From positions 1-64,000 of IMG/VR virus record IMGVR_UViG_2811995317_000003: 64,000 nucleotides of DNA; one strand, given 5' to 3'. Shown piece by piece: positions 1 to 43,277 of the stretch. The first letter of the stretch is position 1; the number at the start of each line of letters is the position of its first letter. Position numbers and translations under genes: made by a program. This DNA is from a virus. Taxonomy: Duplodnaviria; Caudoviricetes. Under the pieces are notes generated by a model. It saw only the letters and a list, made by a program, of their open reading frames with translations, searched no databases and was not told the DNA's origin.

Positions 1-1254
1 ATGCTGGAACAAATGGGCGCAGCCGCGAAGGCCGCCTCTTATAAACTGGCGCTCCTTTCCAGCCGTGAGAAAAACCGCGTGCTGGAAAAAATCGCTGATT
101 ATCTGGAATCGCAATCCGCTGAGATCCTGCGAGCCAACGAACAAGATTTAGCTGAGGCGCGTGAAAACGGCCTGAGCGAAGCGATGCTCGACCGCCTGGC
201 GCTGACGCCGGCGCGCCTGAAAGGCATCGCTGATGATGTCCGTCAGGTTTGTAATCTGGCTGACCCGGTAGGGCAGGTGATTGACGGTGGGCTGCTTGAC
301 AGCGGTTTGCGTCTGGAGCGTCGCCGCGTGCCGCTCGGCGTCATTGGTGTGATTTATGAAGCCCGTCCAAACGTGACGGTTGACGTCGCCTCTCTGTGCC
401 TGAAAACCGGTAACGCTGCCATTCTGCGCGGCGGAAAAGAGACCTGGCGCACCAACGCCGCGACGGTAAACGTCATTCAGCAGGCGCTGGAAGAGTGTGG
501 CTTACCGGCGGGAGCCGTGCAGGCGATCGAGAGCCCAGACCGTGCGCTGGTCAACGAAATGCTGCGCATGGATAAATACATCGACATGTTAATCCCACGC
601 GGTGGCGCAGGTCTGCACAAGCTGTGCCGTGAACAGTCCACTATTCCGGTCATTACAGGCGGTATCGGCGTATGCCATATCGTTGTCGATGACAGCGCAG
701 AGATTGCCCCGGCGCTGAAGATTATCGTTAACGCCAAAACTCAGCGTCCAAGTACCTGTAACACCGTGGAAACGCTGCTGGTGCATCAGGGTATTGCAAA
801 TACCTTCCTCCCGGCGCTGAGCAAACAGATGGCGGAGAGCGGCGTAACGCTGCACGCGGATGCCAATGCGCTCACACTGCTCCAGGATGGCCCGGCTAAG
901 GTAGTGCCAGTCAAAGCGGAGCAGTACGATGACGAGTTCCTGTCGCTGGATCTGAACGTGAAGATTGTTAGCGATCTCGATGACGCGATTGCCCACATCC
1001 GTGAGCATGGTACCCAGCATTCTGACGCGATCCTGACGCGTACGCTGCGCAATGCCGATCGCTTCGTGAACGAAGTGGACTCCTCTGCGGTGTATGTCAA
1101 CGCCTCAACGCGCTTCACCGACGGTGGCCAGTTTGGACTTGGCGCAGAAGTGGCGGTCAGCACGCAGAAACTGCACGCGCGCGGTCCGATGGGCCTCGAA
1201 GCTCTGACCACGTACAAGTGGATCGGCTTCGGTGACGATACAATTCGTGCGTAA
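1..1254 (+). CDS. proA: gamma-glutamyl phosphate reductase
   Basis: 417 aa; motifs [48 protein letters not shown]; canonical neighbour of thrW. Confidence 0.98.
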
Positions 1255-1365: not shown

Positions 1366-1441
1366 GCCGATATAGCTCAGTTGGTAGAGCAGCGCATTCG
1401 TAATGCGAAGGTCGGAGGTTCGACTCCTCTTATCGGCACCA
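1366..1441 (+). tRNA. thrW: tRNA-Thr(CGT); 3' half supplied by prophage 1
   Basis: 76 nt GCCGATATAGCTCAG...TTCGTAA...TTCGACT...TATCGGCACCA; full cloverleaf, anticodon CGT. Confidence 0.97.
1396..1441 (+). repeat. attL core of prophage 1 (46-bp direct repeat)
   Basis: matches 41720-41765 at 44/46 positions; begins in the anticodon arm (ATTCGTAA). Confidence 0.95.
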
Positions 1442-1455
1442 CTAACCACGCGGGT

Positions 1456-2619
1456 TCACGCGATATTAACCAGTTCAGCAAAAGCGCCTTGTGCCATATT
1501 TGTGCCATTCCCCGCCAGGAATGAGTCGATTTGCATGGCATGCTGCGTCAGGTGATTCGGTGCCAGATGAGCATAACGCTGCACCATCTCGATACTTTCC
1601 CACCCGCCCATTTCCTGTAGCGCACTGAGTGGAACGCCGGACTGTACAAGCCAGCTTGCCCAGGTGTGCCGCAGGTCATGGAAGCGAAAATTTTCTATTC
1701 CCGCCCGCCTTAACGCTGCGCGCCATGCCGTGTTAGCATCAGACCGCATTTTGCGCACCGCCTTTGTTCTCGTTCCATCCGGGCGAACGGATGATTCAGT
1801 GTGAACAAAGACCCACCGGTTATGTTTCCCCAGTTGCTCCCGCAGCACCTTACAGGCCGATTCGTTCAGGGCGACCCCAATCGCCCTTCCTGCTTTCGCG
1901 TCCTCGGGGTGAATCCACGCAACCTTCCTCTGCATATCAATTTGCGACCACTCCAGATCAGTGATGTTTGACCTGCGCAGCCCTGTCGCCAGTGCAAAAA
2001 TAACAACTGGCTTCATGTGCTCGGGAAGCTCCCGGATCAGGTTCGCCGCCTCCTCTTTGGTTAGCCAGCGAATACGCTTATTTTTCGGCACCGGGCATTT
2101 GATGTTCGGCGCTTTGGCTATCCATCGCCATTCGTTGGCCGCGCATCGTAATAGCGCCCGGATGAAAGCAAGGTGCGTCGCCTTCGTCGCCAGCGACGCT
2201 GGTTTATCCTTAAATTCAGGAACCGGCTTACCTCTTCGCAGCAGGCTGTCCCGTTTAGCCTCCCAGTTCATTCGATGTTTGCGATTAACCATCGAACTCA
2301 CCGCCGACAAGATCCTGTCTTCAGTGATTGCTGACAGGTCCATTCCTTTGAAGTGCATCCTCCAGAATCCGATCCGGCTTTTGTCATCGTCCAGGCTTTT
2401 CTTGTGCTGCTTTTCGTTAAGCCAGCGAACGCACGCTTCATCGAACGTTCGCGGCTTAAACTCCCCCATCTTATCAACTCGCCATGCTTCAGCTTTCAGC
2501 TGATCATAGAGCTCCTGCGCTTGCCTTTTGTCCGTTGTCCCAAGAGACCGTCTAATTCGACTTCCACCAGGCGTAACGAAGTCGCAGTGCCACGTACCGG
2601 CACGTTGTTTGATTGACAT
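1456..2619 (-). CDS. int: tyrosine integrase (P22 family)
   Basis: 387 aa; [26 protein letters not shown] catalytic motifs; adjacent to attL. Confidence 0.97.
1489..1508 (+). repeat. putative arm-type Int site pair TTGTGCCAT x2, 11-bp spacing
   Basis: 1489-1497 and 1500-1508; same pair at 41595-41614 on the other att arm. Confidence 0.65.
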
Positions 2620-17115: not shown

Positions 17116-17190
17116 GGGTCAGAAGCACAGAGGTTGTGAGATCGGCTGTTAACCGATTGGTCGAAGGTTCGAATCCTTCCTGTCCCGCCA
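17116..17190 (+). tRNA. phage tRNA-Asn(GTT), degenerate
   Basis: anticodon arm ATCGG-CTGTTAA-CCGAT, T arm GAAGG-TTCGAAT-CCTTC, encoded CCA; U-U mismatch in acceptor stem, G-A in D stem. Confidence 0.8.
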
Positions 17191-40349: not shown

Positions 40350-41426
40350 CTATTTTGTATACTTAACACGTAATTTAAGGAACGGCTTTTCAACGTACGC
40401 ATATGTTATCGCTGATGCAATAATTGTTACTGGGATTACTACCAAAATCACCTTAACCAAATGCATTGTTGGGTTAGGGTCCATAGGTATTAATTTTCGT
40501 TGTAGGATATAGTAAATCGGAAGATGCAGAAGATACATAGAGAAACTTAATCCACCAAGGTAGGCTAGTGCCGCATCAACTTTTTGATTCATTGAAAATG
40601 TAGCAGCACAATAGGCATAAATTACCACTGCCCAGAATGCGGCTTCGATAGTAAGGCTAAAGGTTACAAAGTCAGGGATGCTTTTTTTGTTTAAGTAAAG
40701 TACAGCGGTCAGTCCGACTAACCCTGCAAGCATAATGGCAGCTGCTCTTAATAAACTGATTTTCTCTCTTTTAATGTAAAGATAACCGGCAATCATTCCT
40801 ATGAGAAACTGATCCATTCTACCTATGATTGTATGGTAAAAAATACCGTAAATAGGAGCGCCTTTAAAGGTTACAAGAGAATATTTGACCATCAGCATGA
40901 CGGCAATCATACCCAGCAGAGTTTTGATACCATCATTTCTCATGAAAACCGCGAGGAATGGAAATAATAAATAAAATTGAAATTCAACCGCAATTGTCCA
41001 TATTTGCCCTGTTGGGTAGTATTGTTGCCCCCACCCGGTTGTGGCGTGTCCAGTATTTAATTGAAGTGTGAGGATTCGGAGTATATCCATCGGGTCTGAG
41101 TTTGCACGGTTAACGCTGATTGCGATAAAACACAGCAACACAGTCATAGGCGCTATTCGTAAGATTCTGTTTTTTATAAAACTTCCATACGCGATGTCTT
41201 TAATACCTGCATTTGATATTATACAAAACAGAAAGCCGGATAATACCAAGAACAGACTGACGCCGCTGTTTCCTCCAGTAATCCATAATTTGAGAAAATC
41301 AATTGGACCTGAAAGCTCATTGTTGTATTTCAAAAAACCACGACAATGATAAATTATGACTAACGCCGCAGCGAAAAATCTCAAGTGATCTAATCGAGAA
41401 AGATAACTGTTATTAAGTGTTTTCAT
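40350..41426 (-). CDS. acyltransferase-3 family membrane O-acetyltransferase (Oac/OafA-like)
   Basis: LDHLRFFAA...H, GVSLFLVLSGF, RILRI.P, WTIAVEFQFY, SFSMYLLH, VEKPF; low GC; next to att. Confidence 0.9.
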   Translation of the reverse strand: MKTLNNSYLSRLDHLRFFAAALVIIYHCRGFLKYNNELSGPIDFLKLWITGGNSGVSLFLVLSGFLFCIISNAGIKDIAYGSFIKNRILRIAPMTVLLCFIAISVNRANSDPMDILRILTLQLNTGHATTGWGQQYYPTGQIWTIAVEFQFYLLFPFLAVFMRNDGIKTLLGMIAVMLMVKYSLVTFKGAPIYGIFYHTIIGRMDQFLIGMIAGYLYIKREKISLLRAAAIMLAGLVGLTAVLYLNKKSIPDFVTFSLTIEAAFWAVVIYAYCAATFSMNQKVDAALAYLGGLSFSMYLLHLPIYYILQRKLIPMDPNPTMHLVKVILVVIPVTIIASAITYAYVEKPFLKLRVKYTK

Positions 41427-41719
41427 TCCATAGCCCATAAAACGGTTAAAAAGCAATCAATTCTAATTGTTGAGTAAGAGTATCATCTTTCAGAAGGGAG
41501 GAAAGTGATCGTGAGTCAACATGATTCTAATTTGTTCAGAAATCACCCATCCAGATGCATGCTTGAGGCCTGCGCGGATTTTGCAGTCAGAGCTTTGTGC
41601 CATTTTTGTGTCATACATGGCAAATCACCTTCCTCTTTCTTACATCATACGCCATTGAGTTGCGCAATGTGAATGCGGCAAAGTGCATATAAAACAGCTA
41701 GTTAAATGTGATTCTACTA

Positions 41720-41765
41720 ATTCGTAATGCGAAGGTCGTAGGTTCGACTCCTATTATCGGCACCA
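41720..41765 (+). repeat. att junction: attR of prophage 1 and attL of prophage 2
   Basis: 3' half of thrW: ATTCGTAATGCGAAGGTCGTAGGTTCGACTCCTATTATCGGCACCA. Confidence 0.95.
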
Positions 41766-41779
41766 GAAAATTCAATCAG

Positions 41780-42943
41780 TTACGTGTTATTCGTACCCTC
41801 CTTGTTTTCCATATGGGACAGATTTGGGACACAATCGCCAAAAATTGAGTCGATTTGCTTGGCATGTTCGGTCAGATGATTTGGTGCCAGGTGTGCATAC
41901 CGGCGTACCATTTCGATAGACTCCCACCCGCCCATTTCCTGCAGTACAGATATCGGTACTCCGGCCTGAACTAACCAACTTGCCCAGGTGTGTCTCAGAT
42001 CGTGAAATCTGAAATCCTCAATACCAGCTCGCTTTAATGCTGCCCGCCAGGCGGTGTTGGCGTCATACCGCATTTTCCTCACAGCTGGCGCTTTCGTTCC
42101 GTCCGGCTTAGTGCAGCTCTCCTTATAGACGAACACCCATTTGTGGTGACTTCCTATTTGTCTTTTCAGCACGCGACATGCAGTATCATTCAGTGCCACG
42201 CCAATGGCCTGATTCGATTTGCTCTGCTCCGGGTGTATCCATGCCACCCGGCGCTGCATGTCAATCTGCTGCCACTCCAGATTGATGATGTTCGACCGAC
42301 GAAGTCCTGTAGCCAGCGCAAACTCGACAACAGACTTTAGCGGCTCCGGGCATTCATCAATCAGCCTTTTAGCCTCGTGCGGCTCCAGCCAACGGATACG
42401 CTTATTCTTTGGCTGGGGAACCTTGACGATAGGGGCCTTATCCAGCATCTTCCATTCACGTTCTGCCGCACGGAGAAGCGCCTTGATAAATGAAAGGTGT
42501 GTGGCCTTTGTCGCCACCGATGCCGGGCGCGGAACGTAGTCAGGCGTTTCCTTGCCTTTCTTCGTTTGCGCAGCGTTCATCAGCTTCCAGTTTTCCTCAT
42601 GCCTTCGGTTGGTCATCTTCTGTATGGCGGCGTAGATCCGCGATTCAGTGATGTCCTTCAGTTGCATGCCGGCAAAGTGCTGGAGCCAGAATCCGATCCG
42701 GCTCTTATCATCATCCAGCGACTTCTTGTGCGCCTTCTCCTCAAGCCACCTGACACAGGCATCCTCAAATATCATGTCAGGAACCTCACCGAGCTTGCTC
42801 ACCCGCCAGGCTTCGGCCTTTAGCTTGTCATGGAGTTCCGTGGCCTGCCTTTTGTCCTTTGTCCCAAGAGACTGCTTAAATCTTTTGCCGTCCGGCAATG
42901 TGAAGCTGGCGTACCAGGTTTCACCTCTGCGAAAGAGTGACAT
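41780..42943 (-). CDS. int: tyrosine integrase, P22 Int-like
   Basis: [17 protein letters not shown] start (ATG 42943), 387 aa, RHDLRH/Y motifs. Confidence 0.96.
41814..41831 (+). repeat. arm-type Int site pair TGGGACA x2, 11-bp spacing
   Basis: 41814-41820 and 41825-41831; resembles recalled P22 arm motif TGGGAC. Confidence 0.65.
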
Positions 42944-43170
42944 ATTAATTCCTCTCGTATGCCATCGCCCGCGCTCACCTGGACAGTATGCAGCGGTGAC
43001 TTGAGCGCCGCAATGCAGGCCTGTCGGGTAGTGAGGTAAGGGGATTTTGGTTTGGATGGGTCTTTGCGGGTTGCCTGCAGTCTGCCGGTGCGGATCCAGT
43101 TCGCAGCTGTTGGTCTGGATATGCCCAGCATTGCGCAGGCCTGATTGAGAGTGATGCTGTATTGTTCCAC
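42820..43170 (-). CDS. xis: excisionase, P22 Xis-like
   Basis: 116 aa; [22 protein letters not shown]. Confidence 0.9.
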
Positions 43171-43277
43171 TGCGTTCTCCAGGCAAAAAAATGCCCTCGC
43201 AATGGAGGGCTGAAAGGGGGATAACGTGGCAGTGCTTTCGCACCCAATAGCCAGCTCATAACTGGCTATCAGTTGCG

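Follow-up and report, generated by a model that had tools for sequence, protein, structure and literature searches.

Phages of the P22 family (P22, ST64T, L and ES18) share with the prophages described here the tRNA gene thrW as their target and carry the 3' part of this gene just downstream of a converging int gene, the record of phage L being annotated with a 'tRNA-like fragment' and a 'P22 attP site'. The attP of the lambdoid phages HK542, mEp213 and mEpX2 is annotated as 'similar to thrW and ptwF', and the thrW region of E. coli (CP4-6 with ptwF) has the same integration site and the same tandem-array behaviour as the present locus, although the host differs and mostly carries U-A at the pair of tRNA positions, 50 and 64, that is the subject of this analysis. 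In tDNA-restoring islands the gene is made whole by a fragment that the element brings along, and the former fragment ends up at the far end (Islander, PMC4383910). As in the Islander class A, the tDNA of the present locus is intact, a 3' fragment has been displaced, and the element encodes a tyrosine integrase beside the att site; the locus does not differ from this class in kind, and the restoring fragment here is a different natural allele. The literature searched contained no relevant earlier report of stem changes that compensate one another between attL and attR.

The stretch of DNA analysed (64,000 nucleotides, referred to as the window) takes up the first 64 kb of a provirus record of 87.4 kb, and in it proA and thrW are followed by Int1, then by 40 kb of phage DNA and a 46-nt repeat, and finally by Int2 (Table 1); the homologous region of E. 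coli is annotated as proA followed by tRNA-Thr. As the stop codon of Int1 lies 14 nt past the end of the tRNA and the Int2 gene likewise ends 14 nt past the second att copy, the window holds two prophages in tandem. Proteins 100% identical to Int1 are encoded by Citrobacter phage Omnitron, Trabulsiella guamensis and E. coli EcPF16, while the Int2 gene is 82-83% identical in nucleotide sequence to int of the P22-like phages ST64T, L and ES18. The longest open reading frame of Int2 (487 amino acids) opens with a GTG start and has its integrase domain offset by exactly 100 amino acids relative to Int1, so that the true start probably lies ~100 codons downstream of the listed one. Prophage 1 also carries a tRNA-Asn(GTT) gene at 17116-17190. 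The provirus record has been cut at gene boundaries, with the ATG of proA at base 1 and that of gtrA at the last base (87424), and the right att site of prophage 2 is therefore missing; a third att copy was looked for across the full 87.4-kb record and none was found. Past gtrA, a related prophage has a umuD-like (Peptidase_S24) gene and then, ~0.66 kb from gtrA, an att copy with U at position 50, inside which the contig breaks.

Table 1. Features of the window around thrW and the two att copies.
Feature	Position	Strand	Basis and remarks
proA, glutamate-5-semialdehyde dehydrogenase, host flank	1-1254	+	Pfam Aldedh; record begins at proA ATG
thrW, tRNA-Thr(CGU), attL	1366-1441	+	ARAGORN call (CGT); rebuilt gene with G50:C64
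att identity block, copy 1	1396-1441	+	Anticodon loop to CCA end; G1415, C1429
Prophage 1 body, ~40.3 kb	1442-41719	.	Relative of Citrobacter phage Omnitron (BLAST)
Int1, tyrosine integrase of prophage 1	1456-2619	-	Pfam Phage_integrase (PF00589), E = 1e-42
Acyltransferase (Acyl_transf_3), right end of prophage 1 beside att	40350-41456	-	Pfam, E = 8e-37
att identity block, copy 2	41720-41765	+	T41739, A41753 = U50:A64; prophage 1/prophage 2 junction
Prophage 2, left part	41766-64000	.	Extends to base 87424 of record; GtrA, GtrB
Int2, P22-type tyrosine integrase of prophage 2	41780-43243	-	Pfam Phage_integrase, E = 5e-48

The 46-nt 3' block of thrW recurs at 41720-41765 and has no further copy in the 87.4-kb record, the chance expectation for such a recurrence being zero matches. 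The region of identity opens at nt 31 of the tRNA (1396), a single nucleotide ahead of the anticodon loop, and extends to the CCA end (1441); the flanks beyond it are unrelated. Within the block the two copies differ only at G1415/T41739 and C1429/A41753, which, counted from 1366, are nt 50 and 64; these form the second pair of the T stem and are aligned as pairing partners by the Rfam tRNA model, the stem reading GGAGG/CCTCT in the tRNA at 1366-1441 and GTAGG/CCTAT in the downstream copy. By hand count, base-paired partners make up 6 of the 1035 position pairs in the block, so that two random differences would pair in ~0.6% of cases and the coincidence at 50/64 is not a matter of chance. The paired difference in the T stem between the att copies, on which the original prediction was built, is confirmed. 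A block starting at the anticodon loop is the signature of the anticodon-centred class. The crossover would appear to lie in the anticodon loop, judging from the Islander summary (PMC4383910), from the 50/64 alleles always moving together and with the adjacent integrase, and from the lack of hybrid haplotypes in IMG/VR. The thrW gene from nt 1 to ~31 would thus be host DNA, and nt ~32-76 DNA of prophage 1.

Compared with the P22 family, prophage 1 has an int gene that is only ~66% identical in nucleotide sequence to the P22-type int of prophage 2, and an att half with G50:C64, whereas the copy on the Int2 side is U-A. The Int1 protein is 60-66% identical to the Int2-type integrases of other genomes, and Int1 is a more distant branch than Int2 relative to the P22-family integrases. 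In Omnitron (CP115737.1), besides the identical integrase, most of the genome is 90-97% identical to prophage 1 in nucleotide sequence (BLAST) and the same P arm lies beside att, the end of Omnitron matching the right arm of prophage 1 at 41640-41719. The circular Omnitron record joins this P arm to the tRNA fragment and int, giving a joined attP that has U50:A64, in contrast to the G50:C64 of prophage 1. The circular junction reads ...CTAATT + TCGTAATG..., with one T more than ...CTAATTCGTAATG... in the window, and the extra T suggests that the Omnitron record was closed from prophage ends.

Each 3' half is physically linked to the integrase on its right, and the G-C half is thus that of prophage 1. 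The second copy is flanked by the prophage-1 arm on its left and by the prophage-2 integrase on its right; being contiguous with Int2, the U-A half at 41720-41765 is formally the attP half of prophage 2 and not the displaced original of the host, which lies beyond the end of the record. What had been taken as a comparison of phage with host is in fact one of phage 1 with phage 2. Of the original reading of the att pair, the phage-supplied G-C with its pairing kept stands, given the U-A of conspecific genomes and the arrangement in EcPF16 described below, while the U-A copy has to be reassigned to prophage 2 because it adjoins Int2. With the 3' half of the host outside the record, the claim that U-A was replaced rests on conspecific genomes and not on this strain. 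The probable source run also contains a 46-nt U-A unitig of its own, ~3 times as deep as the contig joining proA, thrW(G-C) and int, and another left arm there is attached to a U50 copy. This depth suggests one G-C copy and about three displaced U-A copies in a longer array, and the thrW array of the strain probably holds at least three elements. In one run a contig joins the right arm of prophage 1 to a block with the G allele, and this contig and the circular Omnitron record both speak for a free or circular phage form with a joined attP.

At least 24 NCBI assemblies encode a ProA protein exactly matching that of the window, among them CP083857, listed as Enterobacter kobei (PMC9504195), and CP015227 (Enterobacter sp. 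ODB01). In ten out of ten conspecific loci encoding the identical ProA (Enterobacter kobei-like) thrW has U50:A64; proA itself was compared in nine of the ten, and its DNA is 99.0-100% identical to the window in these nine. The allele is U-A regardless of what lies downstream, be it an island with CbtA/CbeA, a P4-like integrase or other cargo, and also where no integrase follows; U50:A64 is the norm of the species. GGAGG/CCTCT was thus not already present in these relatives, integrase-free loci included, a circumstance that the original prediction had named as telling against it. In one conspecific locus (L053:7366-7441) thrW has U50:A64 together with a C59U change in the T loop and stands beside a different island, with AAA ATPase and subtilase genes; this 3' half is another element-borne variant, changed at an unpaired position. 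An independent replicate of the arrangement is found in E. coli EcPF16: next to thrW (G-C) stands the identical Int1, and a phage remnant of 12 kb with an acyltransferase at its end leads to a displaced U-A fragment, beyond which lies the usual CP4-6-like island. U-A being common in E. coli, the G-C of EcPF16 came with the phage. Together, the conspecific norm and the EcPF16 arrangement support delivery of the G-C allele to thrW by prophage 1, and the expressed thrW, as had been proposed, carries a phage-borne G50:C64 with pairing preserved.

In E. coli, the identical 76-nt G-C tRNA is present in 411 of 5384 records (7.6% of complete records) and the U-A form in 92%. An integrase, or a C-terminal stub of one, lies 14 nt downstream in all five of the E. 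coli G-C genomes examined, even where the prophage is otherwise lost. In E. coli 2012C-4502 (locus L193) a 192-bp integrase stub separates the G-C thrW from the native yagU and ecp genes; here the prophage has been lost and the tRNA allele that it brought has stayed behind as a scar. In a sample of 401 Enterobacteriaceae species genomes, centred on a genome containing a related locus, the block was present in 157, the great majority with U-A and ~8 with G-C, and no third haplotype was seen. U-A is accordingly the usual enterobacterial allele, as had been supposed from the window. G-C is also found in Kluyvera, Buttiauxella, Kosakonia, Pantoea, Erwinia, Trabulsiella, Citrobacter braakii and others, as the sole copy of the block in several Enterobacteriaceae genomes, and in genomes with no integrase match in the downstream sequence examined. 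A native origin of G-C in Kluyvera was considered and dropped, the shared downstream flank being the left end of a P4-like integrase island.

Either allele can also stand beside one and the same integrase. Loci with the same or nearly the same Int1 number ~6 with G-C and ~16 with U-A, Omnitron included, in counts that pool IMG/VR and NCBI sets and may share records, and Int2-like integrases are seen with both alleles. Swaps occur in both directions, a Pantoea genome having a G-C tRNA and a displaced U-A copy and another genome (G266) the reverse. In a tree of the int genes of Int1 phages, which is poorly resolved, G-C is scattered and does not form a clade; at least two changes are forced and the best tree has five, a number that does not differ from that for shuffled labels (77/500), so that the tree does not tell whether G-C had a single origin. 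With this scatter, and with U-A beside the identical integrase in Omnitron, the G-C allele is not a stable trait of this phage lineage. The identical Int1 is also found beside a tRNA-Thr in another context, with PEMT, EAL and FidL-like genes in place of proA, where locus L182 has G-C and L187, L188 and L190 have U-A.

Among the matches listed from IMG/VR the G-C haplotype of the block occurs in 17 stretches and U-A in more than 120, and other combinations at 50/64 (for example G..A or U..C hybrids) were sought across IMG/VR without any being found. The covariation that the original prediction proposed to look for is thus seen across these stretches, as U-A or G-C with pairing kept. Selection clearly maintains the pairing, be it in phage or in host lineages. 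The change from U-A to G-C requires two transversions with no wobble intermediate, and the haplotypes are therefore best read as old alternatives, which would be passed on through recombination and integration, rather than as a change arising in this phage. To speak of selection on attP to rebuild a working tRNA, as the original prediction did, overstates the case, since G-C is old and widespread in hosts and in several integrase lineages. Both alleles score as full cloverleafs against the Rfam model RF00005 (71.0 bits for G-C and 71.8 for U-A, with a gathering score of 29), and the computed energy of the cloverleaf is -24.5 kcal/mol with G-C, -22.7 with U-A and -18.1 with either single mismatch.

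Standard tRNA-restoring integration by a temperate phage, switching the expressed allele from U-A to G-C with likely neutral effect, very probably accounts for the locus. Prophage 1 is a lambdoid phage that has, beside the 3' end of its int gene, its own copy of the thrW sequence between the anticodon loop and CCA, and its tyrosine integrase would recombine this copy with the chromosomal gene in the region of the anticodon loop. After integration the expressed tRNA would be of host origin up to ~nt 31 and of phage origin onward, the prior 3' half having been pushed to the far end. With G50:C64 in the phage copy and U50:A64 both in the host species and in the neighbouring prophage with the P22-type integrase, integration would switch the expressed allele between two Watson-Crick variants that have long coexisted in Enterobacteriaceae and in thrW-targeting elements. 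Prophage 1 presumably arrived last, and the switch itself is most likely selectively neutral. This account is built on what was observed of the anatomy of the locus, on the allele typical of the species, on G-C being linked to neighbouring integrases or their remnants and on the absence of unpaired haplotypes.

That the two differences are sequencing or assembly errors, a possibility the original prediction had itself raised, is next to inconceivable. While repeats can in principle mis-assemble, a Logan contig from the probable source run matches 1150-1750 without a difference at a depth of ~177, the U-A form has its own unitig, and G and C are likewise present in a second isolate that bears the same organism code and comes from another study; the same G-C haplotype is also present in 23 genome stretches as well as in the viral stretches and E. 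coli records counted above, so that dozens of independent assemblies agree. It could also be supposed that G-C is the chromosomal allele of this strain, that the crossover lies 3' of the T stem and that the U-A half at 41720-41765 belongs to prophage 1, as might be suggested by the U-A attP of Omnitron, with its identical integrase protein, and by the genomes in which G-C is the sole copy of the block. This is highly improbable, however. All ten conspecific loci have U-A, and a crossover that was always 3' of nt 64 could never change the T stem, yet in E. coli G-C stands beside an integrase or stub in five out of five genomes. Such a crossover would not require a block of identity starting at the anticodon loop, and one in the T loop would yield the G..A or U..C hybrids that are missing from IMG/VR.

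An adaptive role for G-C, either in tuning the stability of tRNA-Thr(CGU) or its affinity for EF-Tu or in escaping spacers or nucleases, was also put forward in the original prediction and appears very unlikely. EF-Tu reads three pairs of the T stem, among them 50-64 (PMC3239215), G-C adds ~1.8 kcal/mol to the computed stability of the cloverleaf, and G-C is commoner at Int1-type loci (~6/22, from sets that may share records) than in random species (~8/157), all of which would be in keeping with such a role. Against this, Schrader and Uhlenbeck report for UA and GC alike at 50-64 the same average ΔΔG for EF-Tu binding, 0.0 kcal/mol, the individual values for GC being -0.2 in tRNA-Phe and +0.3 in tRNA-Leu bodies, not in tRNA-Thr (PMC3239215), and no change in EF-Tu binding is therefore predicted. 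Moreover, identical integrases are found with either allele and the swaps are bidirectional, and the allele persists in E. coli after decay of the prophage and is also present in genomes without an integrase match in the downstream sequence examined. Nothing was found in support of evasion of spacers or nucleases; a spacer directed against the block would match the tRNA gene of the host too, so that the block would already be protected and evasion by changing it would be self-defeating.

The preferred account, of a restoring integration with a likely neutral switch of allele, indicates no new mechanism or function: the mechanism is that of the textbook, and the polymorphism, present in hundreds of public genomes, is common and probably neutral, and the case is an ordinary one. 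It does provide a clean and checkable example of an integrating phage supplying the 3' half of its target tRNA, with the lysogen expressing a chimeric tRNA as a result, and one in which the stems vary only in pairs, the sole extra variant in a conspecific genome being the single T-loop change. As G-C stands beside an integrase or stub in every one of the five E. coli genomes examined, a phage-borne tRNA allele that outlives its prophage can also mark past lysogeny. A broader role, in which phages and islands spread thrW alleles that become fixed as scars after decay and in which G-C might alter the behaviour of tRNA-Thr(CGU), seems very unlikely; were G-C to alter thermal stability, turnover, decoding of ACG or sensitivity to toxins, lysogeny would have a hidden translational phenotype.

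A tRNA-Thr(CGU) identical to the G-C version of the window over all 76 nt is present in the betaproteobacterium Advenella kashmirensis (locus L004). The match consists of the 5' 39 nt and a 37-nt 3' block. An ancient native allele was considered as its source, but with anything similar seen in only 2 of 41 genomes of the family the match does not by itself point to one. Related loci are found in metagenome-assembled genomes (MAG loci L008-L010, L018, L023 and L025).
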